The notes under the pieces: generated by a model
What the model was told of the DNA's origin: nothing
What the model saw: the letters and a program-made list of their open reading frames with translations, nothing else
Database searches by the model: none
Translations under genes and position numbers: made by a program
IMG/VR virus record: IMGVR_UViG_3300025276_000026
Span: 1-64,000 of that record
Source: a virus
Length of the DNA: 64,000 bases
Strand: one strand, 5' to 3'
Shown: positions 38,663 to 51,317 of the stretch, piece by piece
How the letters are laid out: every line of letters starts with the position of its first letter
Numbering within the stretch: position 1 is the first letter of the stretch

Positions 38663-38929
38663 CTACTTATTGCCTGTTAGAACCTTGAAATTTTGTGCAA
38701 GATTTGGTCTTGGTTCAAATGCAGCTACTACTCTGACTTTTTTAATGTTAAAGGTATAATCCTTTGCATAAGGTATCCATGGTGCAAGACCTACTTCCAT
38801 ATTGGTTCCCTTTAATTCTACGATACATGCGTGTGCTTCTTTTACTGTATAACTAGTTACGTTTTCGGAAACTAAACCTATTACAACATCGCCATTTTCT
38901 AGACGTAAACACTTTATAATTTCAGACAC
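38663..38929 (-). CDS. small T4-like phage protein (possible Sm-like fold)
   Basis: IKCLRLENGDVVIG...LAPWIPY. Confidence 0.7.
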   Translation of the reverse strand: MSEIIKCLRLENGDVVIGLVSENVTSYTVKEAHACIVELKGTNMEVGLAPWIPYAKDYTFNIKKVRVVAAFEPRPNLAQNFKVLTGNK

Positions 38930-39377
38930 TTCTTACTTGCTCCTGTAATTCGAGAGAACGTCTCCCAACTTGTTTAAACCATCGAGAGTCTTCCATCTCA
39001 ACAGCCATTCCTTCCCAATTCTCCGATACAACTGCTTTCCACATGTTGTTAAATTTACCAAAACGACTTCCACCTAAGTTGAATGTCATGTTAACCAATA
39101 CGTGTTGTATTGCTTCGGGTAGACTATAGAAGTCCTTCCCACCTTTTGATTCAAATACATGGATAGTTTCATCTACATGCTTGTCAAAATCAGATTCGTA
39201 ATACGCATCTACTGTTGATTGACTAACTGGAGTTCCAGCTGGTTTACCTTGTTCTGCATCACCATCTTTAATAAGATGACCAACACCTAGTGTTAGATAA
39301 CCTAATGAGTCTGCATAGACTTCAAGGACTTCACCTTCATGTCTTTTAATTTGTTCTTTTAATATTTCTTTATTCAT
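38922..39377 (-). CDS. T4-lysozyme-like endolysin (glycoside hydrolase)
   Basis: RHEG...YADSLGYLTLGVGHL, NMTFNLG, DSRWFKQVGRR. Confidence 0.9.
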   Translation of the reverse strand: MNKEILKEQIKRHEGEVLEVYADSLGYLTLGVGHLIKDGDAEQGKPAGTPVSQSTVDAYYESDFDKHVDETIHVFESKGGKDFYSLPEAIQHVLVNMTFNLGGSRFGKFNNMWKAVVSENWEGMAVEMEDSRWFKQVGRRSLELQEQVRSV

Positions 39378-39678
39378 CCTGTTCCTGTTCCCTTTTCAAT
39401 TGTTCATCCACGAGTTCCATCAAAATGTCACCCATGAGGTCGTTTAATTCACTATTATTTAGGAGTTCCTCAAGTCCAATATCTGTCTTTTGTTGACCGT
39501 GAGGGAACCTTCTTATAGTTCTTTGGAAATTAATGTTGGGTTTTCCATCTTCGAATTGTAACTTACCATATTGGTATACAAGTCCGTCCCATTCTCCACC
39601 TGTCATCTCGATAGCAGCGTCGTTTTCACTTGGATTCTCGACTACCATGTAGACTTTGTTATCGAATAATTTTGGCAT
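39370..39678 (-). CDS. hypothetical protein
   Basis: GEWDGLVYQYGKL...MGDILMEL pattern. Confidence 0.7.
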   Translation of the reverse strand: MPKLFDNKVYMVVENPSENDAAIEMTGGEWDGLVYQYGKLQFEDGKPNINFQRTIRRFPHGQQKTDIGLEELLNNSELNDLMGDILMELVDEQLKREQEQDE

Positions 39679-40195
39679 GTATTTCCTCTTCGATTCTCAT
39701 AGAATCATGTATAGAATTGTTATCATGTATATTTAGTTGTCCTAAAAGATTCATGTTTGTTAGTATGTTATTTATCTGTGTTCGTCTTCCCTTCAGCCAT
39801 ACTTCTGATTGTGTGTCTCCACGTTCTGCGTGACGATTGTGTTCTTCGGTTATGTCTACTGTTAGAACGTAAACTAATGCTTCGTGATTTTGCATTAACC
39901 ATTCTATGTCTACTCCTCTAAAGTATCTATCACCTTCTATTAGAACATGTTTGTAGGCAATGTTTGCCCACTCAATGAATTCTCTAAATTGTGGTATAGA
40001 ACCGTGAGAGAGCTTATCAGTTCCACCGAATGTCTCTCCCTCGGGATATTGACCGACTACTAATATGTCACCATGTTCTTGGCACTTAAATAGTTTCATC
40101 GGTTCAATTAGGTTGGGTTCATCTAACCTAGAGATAAGTCTTCTCATGAGAGTTGACTTTCCCGAACATGGAACTCCACCAACCATGATAATCAT
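39659..40195 (-). CDS. P-loop nucleotide kinase of the type associated with DNA base modification
   Basis: GGVPCSGKST, FGGTDKLS, IEGDR, ERG. Confidence 0.75.
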   Translation of the reverse strand: MIIMVGGVPCSGKSTLMRRLISRLDEPNLIEPMKLFKCQEHGDILVVGQYPEGETFGGTDKLSHGSIPQFREFIEWANIAYKHVLIEGDRYFRGVDIEWLMQNHEALVYVLTVDITEEHNRHAERGDTQSEVWLKGRRTQINNILTNMNLLGQLNIHDNNSIHDSMRIEEEIHAKIIR

Positions 40196-41190
40196 ACTGA
40201 ACTACCGTCCAAGTTGACTACCACATCTTCCAGTGGAAGACCATCATTAAGAGGGTCTGCTGTAGTAATCTGACCTATGAATCCTCTGAATTCAAAGATG
40301 TGATGATACTTTCTATTAAGATGCTGGGTTACCCACAACATAGTTCTGTCAAAAGAATCCATCCAGTTACTTCTTTGGTCTGCAATTTTTGAAGGGTCTA
40401 CATTTAAAATGTAACCATAGATTTGAACTGGTACTAAGTACGTATCATACAAATCTATCATCTGTTTTATTTTAGTTCCAAAGTCCCCATTTGGTCTTGC
40501 AAAACCTATCTGCTGTAAGTCAAGAACATACCCTTTCGATGGGAATTGATTCTCAGCAAGAATCCTGTTTGCAACTCCAGCGTCTACATCTATCACATTT
40601 TCAAATACAGAAAGACTTGACCTAAATCTATTAAAGATTGCAGTCCTTTGTGCTGGTGACTTTGTTGGGGTCATATCTTTTAATCTATCCTTCAAATAAG
40701 AAGTGTTATCTCTTGTACAAGAACCTTGGGCTACAAGTATCTTTAAAGCTTTAACATAGTCTTTGTCATCATTATCCTGTGCTGGTAAATGACATTCATT
40801 GGATTGAATCATAAACATGATTTCATTAGCTGGTGTATCAAAAGTTACAACATCTACTATGACCATAGTTTGCTCAAGTTCTGTAAATGCTTCTAGTCTA
40901 TTGAAACCTGCTTTCAGATAGTACTTTTCATCTGCACCAAGTTCGACTACCAATGGTGGTTCTGAATAGACCCAACCTAGGTTTTGAAATGAATCTACTA
41001 ACTTAAGAACGTTTGCTCTTAAATGGTTGTAGACTCTAATGTTTAAAGATGGGCCTTTCTTTACAGAATGTATGATATCTTCAAGTGGGATTAGTTTCCT
41101 AGTGGTGAAGTTTACACCTTTAGGATACTTTGGTTTACACTCTTTGAGTGACCTATTCACGTCGAATAGGATTTGATTATTGTTTGACAT
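40192..41190 (-). CDS. ParB/Srx-like domain protein
   Basis: NIR...LVDSF...GW...PPLVV...LKAGFNRLEA. Confidence 0.6.
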   Translation of the reverse strand: MSNNNQILFDVNRSLKECKPKYPKGVNFTTRKLIPLEDIIHSVKKGPSLNIRVYNHLRANVLKLVDSFQNLGWVYSEPPLVVELGADEKYYLKAGFNRLEAFTELEQTMVIVDVVTFDTPANEIMFMIQSNECHLPAQDNDDKDYVKALKILVAQGSCTRDNTSYLKDRLKDMTPTKSPAQRTAIFNRFRSSLSVFENVIDVDAGVANRILAENQFPSKGYVLDLQQIGFARPNGDFGTKIKQMIDLYDTYLVPVQIYGYILNVDPSKIADQRSNWMDSFDRTMLWVTQHLNRKYHHIFEFRGFIGQITTADPLNDGLPLEDVVVNLDGSSV

Positions 41191-41279
41191 AGTTGTTCTC
41201 CATAGTCGTTAGTTTGGAACGACACCCATAAAAAAGGGTCTCTTTTTTATTTCAAGTGTAACTCCACTATTATTTAGGT

Positions 41280-42281
41280 CTAAAAGAAACTGTCCAGTGA
41301 ACCTTTGTCTTCATACTTTCCAGCATGAGGGCCGATAGGGTTCTCTGTCTTTCCAGCTCTTCCTTTAGTTGCAACATGTTCATCACAATATGCAACACAT
41401 GATAACCTTACTCCTTCACCAGTGATAGGGGTAACACCGTGCAATTCATTTGAATCTGCAATCAGTACGTCTCCATCATCTGCTTCAATAGCAATACCAT
41501 ATCTAGGGAAACATAAGTATGCACCCCCAAATTCTCCAATACGGAAGACACACATAGTTGTCATTCCGAACTCTAAATCTTTACCATCCAAATGTGCAGA
41601 CATCTTTACAGTGCCACCAGTTGAATACTTGTTTGCAGATAACGCTGTCATCGGTGAACCACCAATGTGATACTTCTCATCTATACACTCATCTGCAAAA
41701 GTTTTTTGTAAGTTGTATACTTCGGGAACTGCACTCTTCAATGCTTCTTCATTGACGTTTGCAATCTGTGATAAGGTTTCAAACTTTTCTGCGTTAGATT
41801 TCTTTTGCATCCAACCACTTGCCTTAATCATTCCTGTGAATCTGCCACGTTTATACCCGATTAGAACTGAATGAATCTCGTTTGCTTCTGCAATACGATT
41901 GAACTCACCATTCTTCTTTAGTGGGTAATAACTGTTAGGTGTTCTTAGGACATAGTCCTTACCTTCGATTAATCCTTTTGCCTTCATATCTTCGTGGTCG
42001 ATAGGCCCGGCTGCATTTGCTCTCATTGTAGATGTATCATCGATAGAGAACAAAGTATCTTTAACTGTTTGGTAAGTCTTACCTTTGTATGCATTCTTTA
42101 CAATACATGCAAGTAAGGTTTCACCCATAAGAGTACCATGTGGTTTATAGATTTTGATAACATCACCATCATATTCGATAGATGATATAACAGTATCATA
42201 GGAATCTTCGGTAAGATATTTACCGTTCCACTCTTTGAAGGTTTCTTTAAACCCTAAGTCTTTTGTTGCAGTGAATTCCAT
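41280..42281 (-). CDS. TET/JBP-family 5-methylpyrimidine dioxygenase
   Basis: SAHLDGKD (HxD), GGAYLCFPRYGIAI...GDVLIAD..ELHGVTPI, RLSCVAY; overlaps the MTase. Confidence 0.85.
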   Translation of the reverse strand: MEFTATKDLGFKETFKEWNGKYLTEDSYDTVISSIEYDGDVIKIYKPHGTLMGETLLACIVKNAYKGKTYQTVKDTLFSIDDTSTMRANAAGPIDHEDMKAKGLIEGKDYVLRTPNSYYPLKKNGEFNRIAEANEIHSVLIGYKRGRFTGMIKASGWMQKKSNAEKFETLSQIANVNEEALKSAVPEVYNLQKTFADECIDEKYHIGGSPMTALSANKYSTGGTVKMSAHLDGKDLEFGMTTMCVFRIGEFGGAYLCFPRYGIAIEADDGDVLIADSNELHGVTPITGEGVRLSCVAYCDEHVATKGRAGKTENPIGPHAGKYEDKGSLDSFF

Positions 42282-43531
42282 GGTTCTATTATTTGTCCTT
42301 TTATGCTTTGAACGAGGTAGTATAAACAAAGTGGTGCAACCATCAATCCGATTCTTGCTCCCTTGTCGTCATAATCACCTGTCATTTTATAATCATTAGG
42401 TAAAGTCATTATCCTTACCATTTCTTGAGGTGTATAAATTCTTTTACCACCATGGTGGAAATGATTACCACCCATAAACTTTGGTTGACACCCTGCTTCA
42501 GTCAATGAATGAGCTGGAAGATGTTTAGGAACGATTCTTGACATGTAGTAAGAATGTTTCTCATCTTCGGGTTTGATATGTCCAAGTCTAATGTTCTCTT
42601 GGAACCATGGTTTTACGATATGGTCTCCGATAGATGTATATGCTTGGTTCTCTCTTTCTTTAAGTACAGGGGTGAGTCCAAGACATGGAGTACACTCTGC
42701 AAATTCTTCCTTTGGGTGTACATCAAATCCATTTACCCAATGTCCTTTGGAAGATTCATCCATTGCAGTTTCTAAATAAGCTGCATCAATAATGTTCTGT
42801 TCGTCTGTTTCTAAATCGTGAATTGCATCTTCAATGGATGCAAATTCTTTTACTGGGTCGGGGAAAACTGAAGACATGCACATCCAAGGCATTCCAATTC
42901 CTTCTAGTACATCATCACGTACACCAACCATGAATACTCTTTCTCTCTTCTGAGGTACACCATGCTGATGTCCCTTCATAACTTTCCAAGTCACTGAGTA
43001 TCCTAGTGCTTCGAAGTCGTTTACCATCCTGTTTAGATGGTCTCTTGCATAGTCCATTGAAAGACCCTTCACGTTCTCACATATTATAACTTTAGGCATT
43101 AACCCTTCGGCAATCCTAATCATTTCCCATGTAAGGTCTTCAATGTTCTGTTGCTTCATACCATAAGCCATCTTCTCTTTGTTCCAACCTTCTTTCTTGG
43201 AACCTGCCATAGAAAATGGTGGACAAGGTGGTGACCCATCCATGATATCTAATTCGTATTTCTTAAGTCCACTAAGCTCCATGATACCTTCTGCAGTGAC
43301 TTCTTTGATGTCTCTACATTCGTGTACTGTGTTAGGGAAGTTTTCTAGGTAGGTGTCAACATGTAACTGTTGGAACTCGTTCATGTAACGAACGTCACCA
43401 CCTGCTAGTTTGTAACCACATGAAGAACCCCCACCACCAGCAAAGAAAGTAATGTAATTAAACTGTTTACTTTCACTGTTACGGTGAAGGTCTTCTAGGT
43501 TGTATTGAAAATATTTATTATCACTCATCAT
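42254..43531 (-). CDS. C5-cytosine DNA methyltransferase
   Basis: FAGGGG (motif I), GSPPCPPFS (IV), ENVKG (VI), PQKRERVF (VIII), RIMTLP (IX). Confidence 0.95.
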   Translation of the reverse strand: MMSDNKYFQYNLEDLHRNSESKQFNYITFFAGGGGSSCGYKLAGGDVRYMNEFQQLHVDTYLENFPNTVHECRDIKEVTAEGIMELSGLKKYELDIMDGSPPCPPFSMAGSKKEGWNKEKMAYGMKQQNIEDLTWEMIRIAEGLMPKVIICENVKGLSMDYARDHLNRMVNDFEALGYSVTWKVMKGHQHGVPQKRERVFMVGVRDDVLEGIGMPWMCMSSVFPDPVKEFASIEDAIHDLETDEQNIIDAAYLETAMDESSKGHWVNGFDVHPKEEFAECTPCLGLTPVLKERENQAYTSIGDHIVKPWFQENIRLGHIKPEDEKHSYYMSRIVPKHLPAHSLTEAGCQPKFMGGNHFHHGGKRIYTPQEMVRIMTLPNDYKMTGDYDDKGARIGLMVAPLCLYYLVQSIKGQIIEPWNSLQQKT

Positions 43532-43538
43532 AGACTCC

Positions 43539-43568
43539 ATTATACTATATTTAGCACAACTCTGTCAA
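43539..43568 (-). promoter_or_regulatory. early promoter with an embedded late-type box for the MTase-TET operon
   Basis: TTGACA-N18-TATAAT; CTAAATA inside the spacer. Confidence 0.7.
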
Positions 43569-43576
43569 GGCGATTT

Positions 43577-44101
43577 CTAAAGATTTTTCAATATATTTTC
43601 AGGGCTTGAAACTTCATAAGGGTCGGACTCTGCATTATCAGTGTATCCTTCTTCAATGAATGCTTTTTCAATTACACCATCGTTAACAACGACTGCATAT
43701 CTCCAAGACCTATATCCGAAACCAAGATTTGATTTAGAACATTCTGCACCAATCAAATGTGTGAACTCACCATTACCATCGGGTAGTGGGTAAACATTCT
43801 TGATACCTAATGATTCAAACCATGTGTTCATAACGAATGTATCGTTAACTGAAACACAATAAATCTCATCGATTCCTTTTGCTCTGAACTCTTCGAATTT
43901 CTCTTCAAAGCCAGGCAGTTGTTGTGTAGAACATGTTGGTGTGAATGCGCCAGGCAATCCAAATATGATTACTCTTTTACCAGCAAACTGTTCTTTAGTG
44001 TCTAGTGATACAAACTCACCGTCAATTCTCTGAGGTATAATTACTTCGGGAACTGTTGTAGTCCCTTCGATAATTTCTAATCCCATTGTTACTTCTGTCA
44101 T
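43577..44101 (-). CDS. peroxiredoxin (Prx5-type)
   Basis: PGAFTPTCS, CVSVND, PDGNGEF, RSWRY. Confidence 0.95.
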   Translation of the reverse strand: MTEVTMGLEIIEGTTTVPEVIIPQRIDGEFVSLDTKEQFAGKRVIIFGLPGAFTPTCSTQQLPGFEEKFEEFRAKGIDEIYCVSVNDTFVMNTWFESLGIKNVYPLPDGNGEFTHLIGAECSKSNLGFGYRSWRYAVVVNDGVIEKAFIEEGYTDNAESDPYEVSSPENILKNL

Positions 44102-44132
44102 AATCTATACTCCATAATAAATAGATACACCC

Positions 44133-44161
44133 ATTGTAACATCAATGAGTATATCTTTCAA
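44133..44161 (-). promoter_or_regulatory. sigma70-type promoter
   Basis: TTGAAA-N17-TACAAT. Confidence 0.55.
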
Positions 44162-44170
44162 GGGGGTTTC

Positions 44171-44608
44171 TTAAGAAATTTTGATTTCTTGAGGTTTATC
44201 TTCTTCGGGTATAATCCTTTCTAAAGACACACTCAAAATACCATTCTTCATGTCTGCACCTTTAACGACAATGTCGTCTGCAAGTGTGAATGTTCTTTTG
44301 AATGAACGAGATGCAAGTCCTCTATGGACATACTCAAGTTCTTCTCCACCCTTTTGTTTACCTTCGATAAGAAGTACATTTTTCTCTTTTGAGATTGTGA
44401 TATCTTTCTTATCAAATCCAGCCAGTGCAAGTTCGATACTGAAGTTCTCTGCATCGTGTTTTACAATATTGTAAGGTGGATAGTTTGTATTAGTCGGTGA
44501 CTGATTGGCACGTTCTAATAGTTGAAGAGTTCTGTCGAACCCGATTGCGAATGGGAATTCTTTCCCGAAATTGAAGATGTCGAAATCTCCGAGCTGTTTA
44601 CTTGTCAT
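44171..44608 (-). CDS. small heat shock protein (Hsp20/IbpA-like)
   Basis: IGFDR, NYPPYNI, ELALAGF, HRGLASRSFKRTF, NGIL, IPEE. Confidence 0.96.
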   Translation of the reverse strand: MTSKQLGDFDIFNFGKEFPFAIGFDRTLQLLERANQSPTNTNYPPYNIVKHDAENFSIELALAGFDKKDITISKEKNVLLIEGKQKGGEELEYVHRGLASRSFKRTFTLADDIVVKGADMKNGILSVSLERIIPEEDKPQEIKIS

Positions 44609-44667: not shown

Positions 44668-44707
44668 TATTTATAGCATATATGGGGACGAATTTAAAAA
44701 CTTCAAG
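44668..44707 (-). promoter_or_regulatory. sigma32 (RpoH) promoter followed by a T4 late promoter
   Basis: CTTGAA-N14-CCCCATAT (44680-44707), then TATAAATA (44668-44675). Confidence 0.8.
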
Positions 44708-46580
44708 TCTTTTTAAGTAATCTAGTTTTACCATCGAATAATGGTGCATAGATTTTGACTGGTATCTCCTTACCTTTAACCTTGATTTCGTCGATGAACT
44801 TCCAGTCAATATCGATTTGGTCTTTGGTAAACTCTGAGAATAGAATTGGAGTATCGTATTGTCTAGTCTGAACTTCAAGTCTGGCTGCAAGGTTGACTGC
44901 ATCACCGACCACTGAGTAATCGAACCTAAGTTCTGACCCCATATTACCTACGATACATGGGCCTGTGTTGACCCCTGTGCCGATTACAACTGGTGGTAGG
45001 TCTAATCCTTCCTCTACAATATCCTTATTCATCTGTTCAGTAAGTATCTCTATTTCCATTGCAGTTCTGATAGCCATCTCTGCATGGTTCGGACAATCCA
45101 AAGGAGCATTCCAAAATGCCATTAGACAATCGCCCATATATTTGTCGACGGTTCCACCGTTCTTGATTACTATCTTAGTCATACCATCGAGGAATCTATT
45201 GATGAGTAGGACTAATCCCTCGGGGTCATCGTTTTTCATGTAAGCTTCACTGATTGGAGTGAATCCTACGATGTCTGCGAAGAGGAATGAAAGTTCCTTT
45301 CTGTCTCCACCTAATCGTAATTTAGAGGGGTCTTTTTGTAGCTCTTCAATCATGTCGGGAGATAAATACTTTTGGAACTGCTTCTTGATTTGTTGCTTTT
45401 CTTGGAAAGTCACATAGTATTTGTTAAACGAAGCATGACCGAAAACTACTAAGGAGGCCAACGATGAAAAGAAGGTATCGAAAAGAACGAGCTCTGAAGT
45501 CCAAATATAATAACTCCCGCCAATCTGGCATACTACAAGTAATAGAAACCCTGTCCCCGAAAGAACTGTGGGAAGCTTGTAAACCATCGCAAGTATCATT
45601 AGCAAAACTATCAGAAGAAGAGCAGTCTCTAGTGATTCAAGATAGTAGGATTGTTGTATTTGAACTCCTGTCAAAACGGTTTGAAGCAGGTTCGCTTGCA
45701 CTTCGTGGGGATACATTACACCCCTTGGGGTTGAAACTGGATTATTCAAACCCTCTGCGGTTAGACCCCATACAAGTATTTTATTCTCAACATTAGAATC
45801 GGGTAAGTCTACAGCAGAAATCCTTTGGAAAGTGTTCCAATAGGATATCATTACGTCACTGGTTGGAGTGGTGGTTATCGGTTTGTCTCTTCCCATCCGA
45901 ACCCACTCCACTCCAGTCTCGGGTGTGATTCTAGTTTGATAACTTGGTTGTTCTCTAAGGGCTCTTAAAGCTTCTAACATTAGTGAGGGGTACACTTCAC
46001 CGTTTGCCGTAACCAATAGTGGTACAGACCGCGTGGTACCGTCAAAATTGGGTGTTCCAGTGACCGCTGGGGTAGCCGTCACAACTCCAACTCCATAGGT
46101 GTTACTCATCAAAATTTCAATCGGACTAACAATCCCATCGAAGTTCCATAGAAAATCTTTAGGTTCCCCACCCCCAAACGTTGAGTTACCAACAAATGGT
46201 GCAGAACCTTTTTGAGTTTGTGAGGTTGGAGCAGCTCCGAGTATTGTGAGACGGTTTACTAATCCTTCTGCGAATACCGCGTCTTGTGTTGGGTCTCTAT
46301 CGGGTTTTGAAAATAGCATACCAAAAATATGAGTGTTGCTATAATGGGTATTAAGAAGCAAGTCACGATAAATCCCACGACGAATAGGATACTGTCCGTA
46401 AGTTTCAAGAGATTTTTCGTCAATGTCGACGAGAATGATGTTATCGACATAGAATTCTTCCTGTTGTTGGTGTAAGTAATCGAACCATGACCATGATATG
46501 TTCTCTATAAAATATGGGTTCCATATCTTAAGTGCAAAGAGAGCTAGTATAGTTACTAATACTGTTTTCCAAGTATACAT
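44703..46580 (-). CDS. CHASE2-domain class III adenylate cyclase
   Basis: ILVDIDEKSL..YGQYP (CHASE2), TPRGVMYPHEVQAN, three TMs, FADIVGFT, VDKYMGD, RFDYSVVGDAVNLAARLE, VKGK. Confidence 0.95.
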   Translation of the reverse strand: MYTWKTVLVTILALFALKIWNPYFIENISWSWFDYLHQQQEEFYVDNIILVDIDEKSLETYGQYPIRRGIYRDLLLNTHYSNTHIFGMLFSKPDRDPTQDAVFAEGLVNRLTILGAAPTSQTQKGSAPFVGNSTFGGGEPKDFLWNFDGIVSPIEILMSNTYGVGVVTATPAVTGTPNFDGTTRSVPLLVTANGEVYPSLMLEALRALREQPSYQTRITPETGVEWVRMGRDKPITTTPTSDVMISYWNTFQRISAVDLPDSNVENKILVWGLTAEGLNNPVSTPRGVMYPHEVQANLLQTVLTGVQIQQSYYLESLETALLLIVLLMILAMVYKLPTVLSGTGFLLLVVCQIGGSYYIWTSELVLFDTFFSSLASLVVFGHASFNKYYVTFQEKQQIKKQFQKYLSPDMIEELQKDPSKLRLGGDRKELSFLFADIVGFTPISEAYMKNDDPEGLVLLINRFLDGMTKIVIKNGGTVDKYMGDCLMAFWNAPLDCPNHAEMAIRTAMEIEILTEQMNKDIVEEGLDLPPVVIGTGVNTGPCIVGNMGSELRFDYSVVGDAVNLAARLEVQTRQYDTPILFSEFTKDQIDIDWKFIDEIKVKGKEIPVKIYAPLFDGKTRLLKKT

Positions 46581-47384
46581 CTAGTTTTGTGTGACTGATA
46601 TATTACAACCACCTGCTGTTTGACAACTTTGAGTTAGTGTATAGTTTTGTACGCTATTACTTTGTTGAGTTAGATTTATGTTAGTTGAGTATGTTCCTGT
46701 TAGGGTTATGTTTGCGTTATGAGCTCCTGAACCACTTTGGGATATAGTACCTGTATTACCATCAACATATGATTTTAATGAAAGAGTTTTCTTTCCATCT
46801 GTTTCTTGGACTACATAAAATGAATTATCGTCTGCATACAAGTATACTGTAGCATCATGTTCTGAATAGGCATTATTGTTACCATTTCTTTGATACCCTG
46901 CTAATGCATTATTACTACCGTGGATATCTAGAGTAAGTGTCACTCCACCACCTTCATCACCGTCACTAGTAAATGTAGTATCGGATGACCCACTTAAAGT
47001 AACACCTTGACCCCATCGAACAGAATTACTGTCACCCAAGATATGAAAATCTATATTTGATTCTTTACATGAAGAACCCCTAGTGCAATTTTGTTCAAAG
47101 TGAAGTGAATTGGAATCACCATTTAAGTCTCCACCCGAACCTTGTTGAGTACCCCAAGTAGGAACAAAGGAAATAAAATTCTTGTTTCCTGTTTGTTTGA
47201 TTAGTATTTGATTTGATGCACCACCTAGTGAAAAGATAGTGTCGTTGTTGAACCCAATTTGAGTTACATTGAAGACAAGATTGTCATTGGACTGACTCCC
47301 TGTCGTTTCCACATCAACCTTGTTGTTATCGTTTGCGACAACAAACAAGGGTAACATAATTAATAATGATAAAAACTTTTTCAT
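46581..47384 (-). CDS. curlin-like secreted beta-solenoid protein
   Basis: signal peptide; repeats VTQIGFNN, IKQTGNKN, ISQSGSGAHN; Asn/Gln/Gly-rich. Confidence 0.7.
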   Translation of the reverse strand: MKKFLSLLIMLPLFVVANDNNKVDVETTGSQSNDNLVFNVTQIGFNNDTIFSLGGASNQILIKQTGNKNFISFVPTWGTQQGSGGDLNGDSNSLHFEQNCTRGSSCKESNIDFHILGDSNSVRWGQGVTLSGSSDTTFTSDGDEGGGVTLTLDIHGSNNALAGYQRNGNNNAYSEHDATVYLYADDNSFYVVQETDGKKTLSLKSYVDGNTGTISQSGSGAHNANITLTGTYSTNINLTQQSNSVQNYTLTQSCQTAGGCNISVTQN

Positions 47385-47391
47385 AATCCTT

Positions 47392-47538
47392 TTAGATTAA
47401 CCATTGAAACAATAAGCATAAAATAACTCCTTCAGAAAATGATAACCAATACATATGGTAATCATCTAGTCGCATAGCTTTTTGAAATCCAAAGATTTGG
47501 TTCTCATGCCATACACGGAATTTTTCTGATATGTTCAT
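47392..47538 (-). CDS. 48-aa membrane peptide inside the curli operon
   Basis: hand-read MNISEKFRVWHENQIFGFQKAMRLDDYHMYWLSFSEGVILCLLFQWLI; SD AGGAG. Confidence 0.7.
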   Translation of the reverse strand: MNISEKFRVWHENQIFGFQKAMRLDDYHMYWLSFSEGVILCLLFQWLI

Positions 47539-47546
47539 ATATTCTC

Positions 47547-48686
47547 CTAGTTTGTTTGTGTGATGGTAATATTTAGAGACGAACCATCACCCACCTGTAT
47601 TGATGACTCTTTTTCGTCTGTTATGGTTCTAATGGATGCTTGTGCAAACATCGGTAACTTAATAGATATAATTCCATTAACTTCCCTGTAGAACCATATT
47701 TGACCAAGACCCTTGTCTACAATAGTAGAATATTGTGTGTCTTTGTCAAAGCCTGGCAGAGTTCCGTCAATACGAACCACTCCGAAGGCATTAGATTGTT
47801 GTCTGTCGAGACCAACCTTACGGTCAATGTCTAAAACTACATCTAATAAATCTTGTAAGAAATCGACATCAAGTAAATCTCTGTCGAGCTCTGTGTATTC
47901 TAACTCATCATCTTCAAAGTACTGTTCTTCCAAGTCATTAAACTCTAGGAAGTCCACGTCAAGAACGTTACTTGTATCGTTCTCTTTACTACTCTGTTCT
48001 TCTGCAACCTGTTTGTTCACCTCTTCGGGTGGACTGACAATGAATAAGTTGTCAATCAAGTTGGGTGTAATTCCATTAACCACTATTGGTTTAGTTGGTG
48101 AATCATCGTATGTAGAAACCATTGTTGCTTGATACGCTTCATCCAATAATACCTGTCCGCCTGCATTACTAACTAGGATACTTCCCGAAGGAGCTCCCCA
48201 TTTATCGGGTAGCAGTATCACAAGTGACCTTCCGATTTCATCAATAGATGTTGTGAAGTCGGTGCCGTTAACTGTTATCTGTGCAGTCGGTGTAGTTATA
48301 TTTATGTTAGCTTTCTTAATCTTTCCACCAAAACCCGAAGCAAATCGAGCGGTGCCTTGTGCCATACGAATGGCCATCTTGGACTTTGAAGGGTCGGGGT
48401 CATAGTAAACCTCGTCTATCCATACCTTTGAATGTTCTGTTAAATCCAGTTGTTCCGTACCTTGGAATTGGATTTTCATTCTGCCGTTCTGAGTCTGTGC
48501 TGTATCATACATCAGCACATCGGATTCATCTGTTGCAGATATCACGGAAGTTTCTCCGTCTCTCTGAAGACCAGCTGAACCCTTGTATTCGATAATCTGA
48601 CCTATCGGTTCACCATATGATAGTGAACTGATAAGTAAGAGATTAACTATCGTTGTCGTCTTTCTGAATAATGTCGATGTTAGCAT
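47547..48686 (-). CDS. FecR-domain periplasmic protein
   Basis: signal-like N-terminus; DTAQTQNGR..I.F, LTEHSKVWID, GTARFASG, TPTAQITVNGTDF. Confidence 0.88.
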   Translation of the reverse strand: MLTSTLFRKTTTIVNLLLISSLSYGEPIGQIIEYKGSAGLQRDGETSVISATDESDVLMYDTAQTQNGRMKIQFQGTEQLDLTEHSKVWIDEVYYDPDPSKSKMAIRMAQGTARFASGFGGKIKKANINITTPTAQITVNGTDFTTSIDEIGRSLVILLPDKWGAPSGSILVSNAGGQVLLDEAYQATMVSTYDDSPTKPIVVNGITPNLIDNLFIVSPPEEVNKQVAEEQSSKENDTSNVLDVDFLEFNDLEEQYFEDDELEYTELDRDLLDVDFLQDLLDVVLDIDRKVGLDRQQSNAFGVVRIDGTLPGFDKDTQYSTIVDKGLGQIWFYREVNGIISIKLPMFAQASIRTITDEKESSIQVGDGSSLNITITQTN

Positions 48687-49374
48687 TAGAGGTCACAAAT
48701 GATACGTCAATGATACCACTACAAGATTGACCACTCGGACAACTTGTATCTGAACCACTCTTCTGAATGATATCAATATCATTGCCTGAACCAGTTAAGA
48801 TTGCAGTGATTTTATTATCAGTCGCGTCAGCTTGAATGGTATTAATGTCGTTTGATGAACCACTTACAGTCCAGTTCCAAACAGCATTATCCGAATCAAC
48901 TTTGGTTGTGAATACGTTACTTGAACCACCTACTACTAAGTCCCAGTTTAAGTATTCTGCTGATGCAGTGTAACCGACATCTATATCAAACGTGTTAGAT
49001 GAACCTGTTACAGCACCTGCCATGTTTAAGTTGTCTGCACTACCTTGATAACCTATGTTCCAATCCATTGAGTTCGAACCACCAGTAAATGTTAAATTTA
49101 CTGTTGAACTATCTGCAATGAAAGGGCCGTATAGTTTGTTGACATCACCAAATTGTACTAGTGTGAAACTGTTGTTTGCACCAGTAAGAATCATGTCAGC
49201 AGATGTTCCCGAGAAATTATCTAAACCGACTTTGTTTCCGTAACCTTTCTGAGTGAAGTTCAACGTTAGGGCTGTACCACTTTGTTGTAACCATATTTCG
49301 TTATCGTCTGCTCCTGCAAATGCAGTAGTCGATAATCCTAATGTTAACATAATCAATAATAATTTATTCTTCAT
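48643..49374 (-). CDS. curlin-like secreted protein (CsgA/CsgB-like)
   Basis: signal peptide; DNEIWLQQSG, FTQKGYGN, VQFGDVN, repeated G.SN motifs. Confidence 0.72.
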   Translation of the reverse strand: MKNKLLLIMLTLGLSTTAFAGADDNEIWLQQSGTALTLNFTQKGYGNKVGLDNFSGTSADMILTGANNSFTLVQFGDVNKLYGPFIADSSTVNLTFTGGSNSMDWNIGYQGSADNLNMAGAVTGSSNTFDIDVGYTASAEYLNWDLVVGGSSNVFTTKVDSDNAVWNWTVSGSSNDINTIQADATDNKITAILTGSGNDIDIIQKSGSDTSCPSGQSCSGIIDVSFVTSNANIDIIQKDDNDS

Positions 49375-50272
49375 GTTTTTCTCCTATTGAATGTAACTCG
49401 TTTCTTCCATGTGTTCCATGGGGGTGACGATGTTCATCTTTAATTACCCAAAAACTTCTATCGTGTCCTTGGTATATTAGTTCTAGAACGGCAAGTTCAA
49501 TTGCTGAACGTGTTGCTTTCGTAACACCTTCATTTTCTGCTCTGCCATCTTCCATTTCAATTAACTTCGTATCCATATCAACGAAGCGGAATACATCATA
49601 ACCACCACCTGTACTTAGAATCGTTTTCTGAGTCTGTACATTCAGTAAAATCTCACCAGTTAAAGTTGATATTCCTCTCAACGATACGGTGATAACATCC
49701 CTACGATATGAAATAGAACTGCCAATACCTAAGTATCTTGCGCCTCTTCCACCGCTTTCGATGTTCGAATCATAACCAATAATCCCACCTTCCAGTAGGA
49801 TTCCTGCGAAGAGCAAGGGTTGAATTCCTGTTGGGGAACCCTCATTACCTTCCTGTTCTGCAAAACTTTCTCTAGTAGAACGAATGATTTGACGCTCTCT
49901 TACTAGTGCATCTAAACTTGTTCTCTCTACTACTCTAAACCATTTACCCTTCCCTGCTGTCTTAAGTGCATCAATCAAAAATGATTCAGCTCCTTGTGTG
50001 ACTGCAGTGGAGAAAGATGCAATTCCATCTTTACTCTTACGTTGTCCTGTCTTATCCATGAAAGCGTAGACTGCAACGACTGGCATTACATCTGCTGGTG
50101 GTAACAGTAACAACTCTTTATAAGTAGGTATATTTACTACTTCTGCCTTCTCAATGCACTCACCCACCTTACTCATTACAAGAGAGGTGCAACTGTCGGT
50201 CATAGACGGAATACTTGCACACCCAGTGGTGAACAAGACCGTTATCAGTCCTATAATTGCCCATTGCTTCAT
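49364..50272 (-). CDS. csgG: curli secretion channel lipoprotein CsgG
   Basis: lipobox TTGC; VAVYAFMDKTGQRK, FSTAVTQG, WFRVVER, LVRERQIIR, EGGIIGYDSN, GGRGARYLGIG. Confidence 0.95.
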   Translation of the reverse strand: MKQWAIIGLITVLFTTGCASIPSMTDSCTSLVMSKVGECIEKAEVVNIPTYKELLLLPPADVMPVVAVYAFMDKTGQRKSKDGIASFSTAVTQGAESFLIDALKTAGKGKWFRVVERTSLDALVRERQIIRSTRESFAEQEGNEGSPTGIQPLLFAGILLEGGIIGYDSNIESGGRGARYLGIGSSISYRRDVITVSLRGISTLTGEILLNVQTQKTILSTGGGYDVFRFVDMDTKLIEMEDGRAENEGVTKATRSAIELAVLELIYQGHDRSFWVIKDEHRHPHGTHGRNELHSIGEKHEE

Positions 50273-50767
50273 TTAGAAACTTCCTGTACCAACTGGTATA
50301 TCTAAAATCGTTGTTGTCCCATCCTCGGTCACTATCGTTAATCGAATGAAGTCTACTCCATCCTCTCCAGTCATCCTTTCATATGTGACTGTATTACCTT
50401 CCATTACGAAAGTACCGTAGGCAGCTGCTGTTCCGTTAGAGAACATGTTCTCTACTAACTGTTTTGCTAACTGAGCATAAATTCTGCTCTCTACGTTTCT
50501 TAAAAATTTTGCAAGTGTTGTGTTCTGTGCTTCTCTGTCTGCCTTTGCAATGGCATCTTCTAAATCTTGTTTTATCTTATCACGTCTAGACTTCTCTTGA
50601 TTTTCTATAGTCAAATAGTGAGCAGATATCCCTATCCCATTAAAGGATGGACTCTTAAACTTGTGTACTATCTCGTCTGCATTGGCATAGTTGATACCAA
50701 GACCACATGCTGTTACCAACATTATTAGTCTTACAACGTGCAATTTACTTTCTATTTTTCTCAACAT
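50273..50767 (-). CDS. csgF: curli assembly component CsgF (true start probably near 50722-50743)
   Basis: signal peptide then EIVHKFKSPSFNG; FLRNVESRIYAQLAKQL; C-terminal GTTTILDIP; adjacent to csgG. Confidence 0.88.
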   Translation of the reverse strand: MLRKIESKLHVVRLIMLVTACGLGINYANADEIVHKFKSPSFNGIGISAHYLTIENQEKSRRDKIKQDLEDAIAKADREAQNTTLAKFLRNVESRIYAQLAKQLVENMFSNGTAAAYGTFVMEGNTVTYERMTGEDGVDFIRLTIVTEDGTTTILDIPVGTGSF

Positions 50768-51020
50768 TCTGTGACTCCTGCTTCTTGCTGTTCTCTTTCA
50801 TTTCGAGAACCACATTTACTTTCTGCTGTAAACGGATTAAATCTTGGTCTAACATTCTGACTTGGTCAATAACTTTAATCAATGCAAAATGCTGTTTCTC
50901 TATCTCGGGTTCTAGTTTTTCACCTACGAACCACCAAATAAAATATATGAAATATCCTAGACCCACCATCATTACAATTGGGAATCCGTAATCAGATATT
51001 ACTTGAACGAGACCTTCCAT
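50745..51020 (-). CDS. small membrane protein (TM + coiled coil)
   Basis: YGFPIVMMVGLGYFIYFIW TM; LIKVIDQVRMLDQDLIRL. Confidence 0.75.
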   Translation of the reverse strand: MEGLVQVISDYGFPIVMMVGLGYFIYFIWWFVGEKLEPEIEKQHFALIKVIDQVRMLDQDLIRLQQKVNVVLEMKENSKKQESQNVEKNRK

Positions 51021-51317
51021 TTAGTCTCTCCTTACATCTAGTTTACCGTCTTCTATAAAGTTCTCTGCTCTTGCAACCCTGTCTATATCGGGTCTAAGTT
51101 CTAACGCTGCAGAGACTAGTAAATCTATCTTAATCATTTCATTGGACATTGTTCTTGCACGATTCTCTAGGGATGTACAGAACATTGTAAGGGTTTTGAT
51201 ATCATCAACAACACCTTCAAGTATTTGTTTTATGACAAGGAATATGAAAAAGCCCATTACTAAACTTCCAGCAATCGGAGCTCCCACTTCACCTATCAAT
51301 ACAAATATATCATTCAT
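51021..51317 (-). CDS. small membrane protein (TM + coiled coil), similar to its neighbour
   Basis: VGAPIAGSLVMGFFIFLVI TM; LENRARTMSNEMIKID. Confidence 0.75.
   Translation of the reverse strand: MNDIFVLIGEVGAPIAGSLVMGFFIFLVIKQILEGVVDDIKTLTMFCTSLENRARTMSNEMIKIDLLVSAALELRPDIDRVARAENFIEDGKLDVRRD

Follow-up and report, generated by a model that had tools for sequence, protein, structure and literature searches.

A methylase–TET–kinase gene cluster of a marine T4-like phage as a candidate post-replicative cytosine modification module with a swappable gene slot

Genes and predicted enzymes of the cluster

The stretch of DNA analysed here (the window) comprises positions 1-64,000 of the 97,368-base IMG/VR contig IMGVR_UViG_3300025276_000026, which has an estimated completeness of 54% and belongs to a T4-like marine myophage; among cultured phages it is closest to the Methylophilales (OM43) Melnitz phages, Kyanoviridae, and the phage carrying the module is related to Methylophilales phage Melnitz and to the pelagimyophages. 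Nearly all genes lie on the minus strand. A preliminary description of the sequence had named a DNA modification cluster of four open reading frames (ORFs), all of which are intact on that strand at the positions it gave. The order in the direction of transcription is Hsp20, peroxiredoxin, a C5-methyltransferase (C5-MT, below also methylase), a TET/JBP-type dioxygenase, an 89-nt spacer, a 332-aa protein and a 178-aa kinase. The features of the cluster itself are as follows.

43539-43568, minus strand: promoter-like region before the methylase gene, TTGACA-N18-TATAAT (12/12), whose spacer contains a late-type CTAAATA box (43548-43554)
42254-43540, minus strand: C5-cytosine DNA methyltransferase (PF00145, E 7.5e-47), likely start ATG 43531, giving 425 aa; predicted target GpC
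41280-42281, minus strand: TET/JBP-type 5-methylpyrimidine dioxygenase (5mYOX), 333 aa (PF12851, E 1e-13, above the curated cut-off)
41191-41279, minus strand: 89-nt spacer accompanying the ParB-like cassette, with a CTAAATA box (41271-41277) and an imperfect hairpin
40192-41190, minus strand: ParB/Srx-fold protein, 332 aa, optional cassette (AlphaFold model, Foldseek, VIA-align)
39659-40195, minus strand: P-loop kinase (Ploopntkinase3), 178 aa, candidate 5-hydroxymethylcytosine (5hmC) DNA kinase (PF18751, 31.3 bits against a cut-off of 27)

The methylase retains all of its motifs, namely I (FFAGGGG), IV (SPPCPPFS, with the catalytic Cys), VI (ENVKG), VIII (QKRER) and X (RIGLMVAP). Translation of the methylase probably begins at the ATG at 43531, which follows a GGAG, because the first ATG is out of frame in close relatives; the annotated start ATG (43540) overlaps the -10 box (window 43528-43540). 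The promoter-like region upstream holds the sole 12/12 sigma-70 consensus within 6 kb. Its CTAAATA-tag-TATAAT core is conserved in 24 related loci, 14 of which also keep the TTGACA -35 box, and CTAAATA is weakly enriched in the window (21 copies vs 12.7 expected).

The best solved relative of the methylase is SpCmoX (8yf3, E 7.6e-66), far ahead of M.HhaI (6e-14). SpCmoX is a GC-specific cytosine C5-carboxymethyltransferase of the Synechococcus cyanophage S-B43 (PMC12783734), and it has in common with the methylase the SPPC motif, GC specificity (predicted for the methylase) and an origin in a T4-like marine phage; ParBc proteins are, moreover, frequent on CmoX contigs. These likenesses would suit an enzyme of the CmoX type that makes 5-carboxymethylcytosine at GpC. 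The hallmark of CmoX is Arg350, which contacts the carboxylate of carboxy-S-adenosylmethionine (PMC12783734), whereas the corresponding residue of the methylase is Leu399, and Leu stands there in all 66 relatives and in Melnitz as well. A TIGR00740 search of the 97-kb contig found no CmoA. On these two grounds a carboxymethyltransferase identity was ruled out, and by its sequence the enzyme is taken as an S-adenosylmethionine-dependent methylase of a lineage sister to CmoX. The present locus differs further from that of SpCmoX in lacking an amide ligase and in pairing the methylase with a TET enzyme, a partner that requires a methyl group. We thus give a 5-carboxymethylcytosine pathway hardly any credence.

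The TET gene, counted from its ATG (the mechanical ORF opens at a TTG, 42329), shares its first 28 nt with the methylase 3′ end, and such an overlap was found in nearly all close relatives whose DNA extends that far. A six-frame search returned PF12851 with an E of 1.5e-15, and the iron ligands H230-x-D232 (H230-L-D232) and H281 and the 2-oxoglutarate-binding R292 are all present. Searched against the PDB by phmmer, the TET protein and the kinase each gave chance matches only.

The kinase gene starts within the ParB-like gene, overlapping its stop by 4 nt. The protein matches phrog_800 (E 1.5e-12), its AlphaFold model (predicted local distance difference test, pLDDT, 93.3) has a generic nucleoside monophosphate (NMP) kinase fold, and it belongs to a family of at least 287 related 90% clusters in which GGTDKLS and EGDR are among the most conserved columns. 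The name 'terminase small subunit', which phrog_800 bears too, is a propagated mis-annotation; RefSeq uses it for base-modification kinases in NC_007809 (L085:16686-17249) and in Caulobacter phage Cr30 (NC_025422, 51794-52321). These searches bear out what the preliminary description had read from the letters: an intact C5-cytosine methylase overlapping a TET/JBP-type enzyme with an HxD...H...R signature, a small P-loop kinase with GGTDKLS/EGDR, and a promoter with both early and late-type boxes.

The arrangement has a published counterpart. Among metavirome C5-MT/TET clusters, those of clade I/A carry a heat-shock protein (HSP), a redoxin, and a P-loop kinase or a glycosyltransferase; in clade I the target recognition domain (TRD) of the methylase is enlarged by an insert relative to clade II; C5-MT43 and C5-MT88 methylate GpC[C/T/G] and not GpCA; TET43 and TET88 oxidise 5-methylcytosine (5mC) to 5hmC only; and for the kinase contigs, phosphorylation of the TET-made 5hmC followed by further modification was proposed (Burke et al., 2021, PNAS, PMC8256090). 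Both the layout and the hypothesis of a kinase that phosphorylates 5hmC have thus been in print since 2021, and as a pathway candidate the cluster is not new. Like kinase contigs 49, 76 and 88 of clade I/A, it has an HSP, a redoxin, a C5-MT overlapping a TET gene and a P-loop kinase in the same order, a methylase with complete motifs, a longer TRD region and a GpC-type footprint (below); as in that clade the downstream gene is a kinase or a glycosyltransferase, and sibling loci have TAGT, AGT or epimerase genes instead. From motif VIII to X the methylase measures 199 aa, against 179 aa in the polymerase-linked Melnitz methylase, which served as a clade II stand-in chosen by its layout. A ParB-like cassette sits between TET and kinase here, unlike in clade I/A, although the paper names ParB in such contigs in passing. 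Melnitz genes 5-9 (MZ577097) likewise run from a methylase through a TET (51% identical), a variable gene and a kinase (54% identical) to a small protein; they differ in their polymerase-linked (clade II/B-like) layout and in the middle gene, which encodes a 427-aa protein unrelated to the ParB-like one.

A swappable slot after the TET gene and the ParB-like cassette

Related loci were surveyed in IMG/VR, yielding 80 with TET relatives of 49-100% identity, 69 of which could be typed. Among these 69, the gene position after TET is a swappable slot on a conserved backbone, an observation that is new here. The kinase follows 3-5 nt after, or abuts, the TET stop in 19 loci; a ParB-like gene and then the kinase follow in 26; and in 3 another insert precedes the kinase, either a 189-aa protein or a Melnitz-like 425-aa protein, so that the slot is of the kinase type in 48/69. 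Epimerase, TAGT, AGT or GT8-like genes occupy it in 13/69, and within the available DNA none of these 13 has the kinase. Loci of the glycosyltransferase type are found among the closest TET relatives of the window's TET. This pattern argues that kinase and glycosyltransferases are alternative tailoring modules on one MT-TET core, using one and the same 5hmC handle, and of the genomic arguments for an action of the kinase on 5hmC in DNA the alternation is the strongest.

Several minor features of the slot were also recorded. Four loci with the kinase directly after TET hold a second, degenerate kinase copy in tandem (L060:5868-6398; L061, L062, L065), 39-42% identical, which keeps Walker A and has lost GETFGGTD and EGDR. 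Further slot inserts are Pfam-less, encoding proteins of 189 aa (L067:3426-3995 and L069), 425 aa (L068:6996-8273) and 393 aa (L044:7013-8194), and a Melnitz-like branch (L074:2900-4141; L075, L076, L080) has a DUF6267 protein (E 7e-105) and a 384-508-aa protein after TET. The Melnitz-type 425/427-aa slot protein has no Pfam match, and a ParB-like identity for it was ruled out by hhalign (probability 2%).

The 332-aa protein of the window matched nothing in Pfam and PHROG searches, and it was assigned by structure. An AlphaFold model built from a 57-sequence alignment (pLDDT 90.9) suggests an N-terminal ParB-like nucleotide-binding domain, a helical middle and a C-terminal alpha/beta domain that has no clear match. 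With the N-terminal half, Foldseek retrieved PadC, ParB, Noc, KorB and sulfiredoxin (Srx) at E 7e-6 to 3e-4; VIA-align gave Z scores of 10.3 for pNOB8 ParB-N, 10.0 for PadC, 9.2 for KorB and 8.9 for Srx; and the family profile matches Noc and ParB weakly. The GxxR motif is retained as GFNR, with G95 invariant and R98 nearly invariant. In this allele the CTPase residues are degenerate (NIR for QPR, and GFNR, with F for E, for GERR), while QPR is retained by the majority of the other alleles, and GFNR by most of those that were typed. No convincing structural match to a helix-turn-helix was obtained, only weak helical ones at Z ~5, and the C-terminal domain (residues 203-332) gave weak matches (Z <=5.5, poor root-mean-square deviation). 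A tblastn search against cultured phages found no match, and two distant family members (P0054, P0024) found none in IMG/VR. The structural results nevertheless agree on a ParB/Srx fold, in keeping with the ParB-like ORF named in the preliminary description.

Its distribution is that of an optional gene. On the TET tree, presence of the ParB-like gene requires 9 changes (gain, loss or replacement), of which well-supported branches impose at least 7, and loci L010 (without the gene) and L011 (with it) encode identical TET proteins, their TET DNA being 99.8% identical up to the stop codon. Three deep allele groups with 19-33% mutual identity occur beside TETs and kinases that are >90% identical; these groups are scattered on the kinase tree too, and a test for co-variation of kinase and ParB alleles found none. 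The cassette has its own spacer, usually with a CTAAATA box directly after the TET stop. Because of the changes on the TET tree and the identical TETs with and without it, the ParB-like protein is a facultative accessory and not an obligate activator of this TET lineage. As a member of the cluster, the ParB-like ORF of the preliminary description is thus present, but it is not a fixed part of the pathway, being an optional and frequently exchanged cassette. Full-length ParB-like genes were counted in 26/48 kinase-type loci and 0/13 glycosyltransferase-type loci, a difference that serves as a lead only, the loci being mutually related. N-terminal ParB-like fragments stand beside other slot genes in L034:6875-7285 and L042:7022-7411 (the latter with a glycosyltransferase cassette) and look like scars of cassette replacement.

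Clade C1 thymine dioxygenases have been shown to be activated by cognate ParB-like proteins (O'Toole et al., 2026, PNAS, PMC13229309), and the combination of a ParB-like protein with a P-loop kinase is the published signature of that clade. The TET might then be a ParB-dependent thymine dioxygenase producing 5-hydroxymethyluracil (5hmU), which the kinase would phosphorylate, with the methylase as an independent anti-restriction gene. The pair 5mYOX176/ParB176 of clade C1 (PMC13229309) indeed resembles the present one: a ParB-fold protein that has no obvious DNA-binding domain adjoins the 5mYOX and is linked to a P-loop kinase, and the canonical CTPase residues, which the clade C1 protein can do without, are degenerate in the present one. 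Certain phage 5mYOXs, moreover, act on T and 5mC alike (PMC13229309, PMC8256090). Clade C1 enzymes, in contrast, have no immediately neighbouring C5-MT, whereas here the methylase overlaps the TET in the window and in nearly all close relatives; the genomic evidence shows no cognate pairing, since identical TETs occur without the ParB-like gene and its alleles are swapped independently of TET and kinase; no ADDT or GATase accompanies the cluster; the layout fits clade I/A, shown to oxidise 5mC (PMC8256090); and the restriction-site footprint tracks GpC and not T contexts. Since the methylase overlaps the TET and the ParB-like gene is facultative, the thymine reading was rejected, and we judge it very improbable. 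Given that overlap and the non-cognate pairing, the ParB-like protein is better read as a facultative helper than as a sign of thymine oxidation, and an optional, freely exchanged ParB-like gene in a methylase-linked TET lineage qualifies the view of ParB as the cognate activator of thymine dioxygenases.

Restriction-site footprint and the proposed pathway

Sites were counted over the whole 97-kb contig (the window plus L083 and L084). GATC is absent against 364 copies expected, and CCGG occurs 3 times against 75 expected. A GpC adjoins each of the 25 CCWGG sites and each of the 3 CCGG sites, as GCC on one strand; the chance of this is ~17% per CCWGG site and hence ~1e-19 for 25/25. Palindromes containing GC[C/T/G], such as GGCC, GAGCTC and CAGCTG, are spared or enriched relative to others (Mann-Whitney p 0.0016), whereas GTGCAC and GCATGC, which hold GC only as GCA, are absent from the contig, as is GACGTC. 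The footprint agrees with a protective modification at GC[C/T/G], which is the published specificity of clade I, and it implies host restriction at the avoided words, from which a site escapes only where it is overlapped by GC[C/T/G] modification. Together with the TET match above the Pfam threshold, this agrees with the logic of 5mC followed by 5hmC that had been put forward for the cluster, and with the GpC preference of characterised cases.

Taken as a whole, the cluster is probably best explained as a post-replicative cytosine module that leads from 5mC through 5hmC to phosphorylated 5hmC, with the ParB-like protein facultative and restriction protection as its outcome. In the first step, the C5-MT would methylate cytosine at GpC, probably within GC[C/T/G]; in the second, the overlapping TET/5mYOX would oxidise 5mC to 5hmC and no further, both steps being modelled on the tested members of the clade that the cluster fits. 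The third step is suggested by gene context: the Ploopntkinase3 kinase may phosphorylate the 5-hydroxymethyl group in DNA to give 5-phosphomethylcytosine, in parallel to the 5-hydroxymethyldeoxyuridine (5-hmdU) DNA kinases acting on 5hmU. That phosphorylated base might mark the end of the pathway, or it might be an activated intermediate, used by a transferase that has yet to be recognised. The ParB/Srx-fold protein, with its own cassette and its own promoter-like box, most likely helps the modification enzymes to engage double-stranded DNA, and the modification would protect the phage DNA against host restriction.

The 5-hmdU DNA kinases, for example M6 gp54 and ViI gp67/gp243, are the tested base kinases (Lee et al., 2021, NAR, PMC8989533). 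They resemble the present enzyme as small P-loop kinases of phage base-hypermodification loci that place a phosphate onto a 5-hydroxymethylpyrimidine in DNA (for our kinase, as proposed here), and both match phrog_800, as judged from the common mis-annotation mentioned above. They differ in family (PF18748 there, PF18751 here), with only Walker A in common, in the presumed substrate, which here is 5hmC and not 5hmU, and in having an amino-acid:DNA transferase as partner, which was not found here.

Several points weigh against the proposed pathway. The kinase lies outside the 5-hmdU DNA kinase family: it matches PF18751 and had no PF18748 match at E up to 0.01, whereas the control M6 gp54 matches PF18748 at E 7.7e-18, and BLASTP of M6 gp54 against the kinase aligned the Walker A region only. 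Its modelled generic NMP-kinase fold leaves a nucleotide substrate possible. A literature search gave no experiment on any Ploopntkinase3 member and no paper testing the kinase on 5hmC DNA. The preliminary description had found no glycosyltransferase in the cluster; on the whole contig, no TAGT, AGT or member of the amino-acid:DNA transferase family PF18724 was found in these 97 kb, ~54% of the genome (the PF18724 control, M6 gp51, matched at E 1.4e-46); a transferase for the phosphorylated base was thus missing from the contig and may lie in the remainder of the genome. Finally, the placement in clade I/A follows the paper's text description and not a tree, and the footprint indicates GpC protection and not the chemistry of the modification.

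Some of these points would equally suit a module that ends at 5hmC (or 5mC); the kinase would then merely be a neighbour of TET, an ordinary enzyme that phosphorylates nucleotides or nucleosides to supply precursors. The fold search with the kinase returned only generic NMP, guanylate and nicotinamide-riboside kinases, which do not indicate a substrate; some of its relatives are labelled 'adenylate kinase' or 'uridine kinase' in their source records; and the downstream transferase is the one missing from the contig. A mere neighbour is hard to reconcile with the close coupling of the kinase start to the TET stop in ParB-less loci, with the alternation of kinase and DNA glycosyltransferases in the slot, with a Pfam family that was defined from phage DNA-modification contexts, and with the tandem kinase copies of some relatives, which recall ViI with its 5-hmdU DNA kinases (PMC8989533). 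We consider precursor supply unlikely, and retain the phosphorylation of 5hmC in DNA as the proposed third step of the pathway.

The final base could be unusual, as the preliminary description had suggested, and one specific version may be offered tentatively: 5-phosphomethylcytosine at GpC could be the terminal base in many such phages, with the ParB-like cassette as a loader or targeting factor that sets site or density, or even as the missing group-transfer enzyme, a role considered because ParB/Srx-fold proteins include phosphotransferases. If so, these phages would contain a natural DNA base that carries a negative charge and has not been described before. A 5hmC DNA kinase, if true, would itself be a new enzyme activity, its product either a new natural base or an activated intermediate. 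Both enzymes for epigenetic sequencing and new DNA chemistries can be drawn from the post-replicative 5hmC pathways of marine phages, in which the glycosyltransferase branch has been worked out while the kinase branch has not, despite hundreds of kinase-family sequence clusters in ocean metagenomes. The cultured relative Melnitz, which grows on OM43, makes the question of the kinase product directly testable.

Neighbouring genes and occurrence in metagenomes

Beyond the kinase, in the direction of transcription, lie a 102-aa protein, a lysozyme, two small ORFs and DNA polymerase B. The features mapped outside the cluster are listed below.

44171-44608, minus strand: Hsp20 (PF00011, E 1.8e-18), a mark of the published clade I/A layout
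43577-44101, minus strand: peroxiredoxin (PF08534, E 3.6e-28), a mark of the same layout
39370-39678, minus strand: 102-aa protein, function not assigned (phrog_3998, E 7e-6), from the neighbourhood map
contig 85286-89747 (L084:3286-7747): two or three 2-oxoglutarate-Fe(II) oxygenases and a GT8-like 524-aa protein (Pfam, weak for GT8)

The 102-aa protein is a backbone gene and not specific to the kinase route, because it is found after kinase-type and glycosyltransferase-type cassettes alike. The weakly GT8-like protein lies 46 kb from the cluster amid neck and tail-sheath genes and beside the oxygenases; owing to this neck and tail gene context, the region probably serves the tailoring of virion proteins rather than DNA modification.

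At least 14 marine metagenome runs, drawn from 10 studies (2017-2025), contain the exact 5.3-kb stretch of the cluster (window 38900-44200, this ParB allele included), with 98-99% of the sampled words. Six metatranscriptome libraries contain 73-87% of the sampled words, and contigs from RNA libraries span the kinase, the ParB-like gene and the TET 3′ end, DNA carry-over being a possible source. As a minor observation, a CHASE2 adenylate cyclase (PF05226 and PF00211) lies directly upstream of hsp20, within window 44703-51317.

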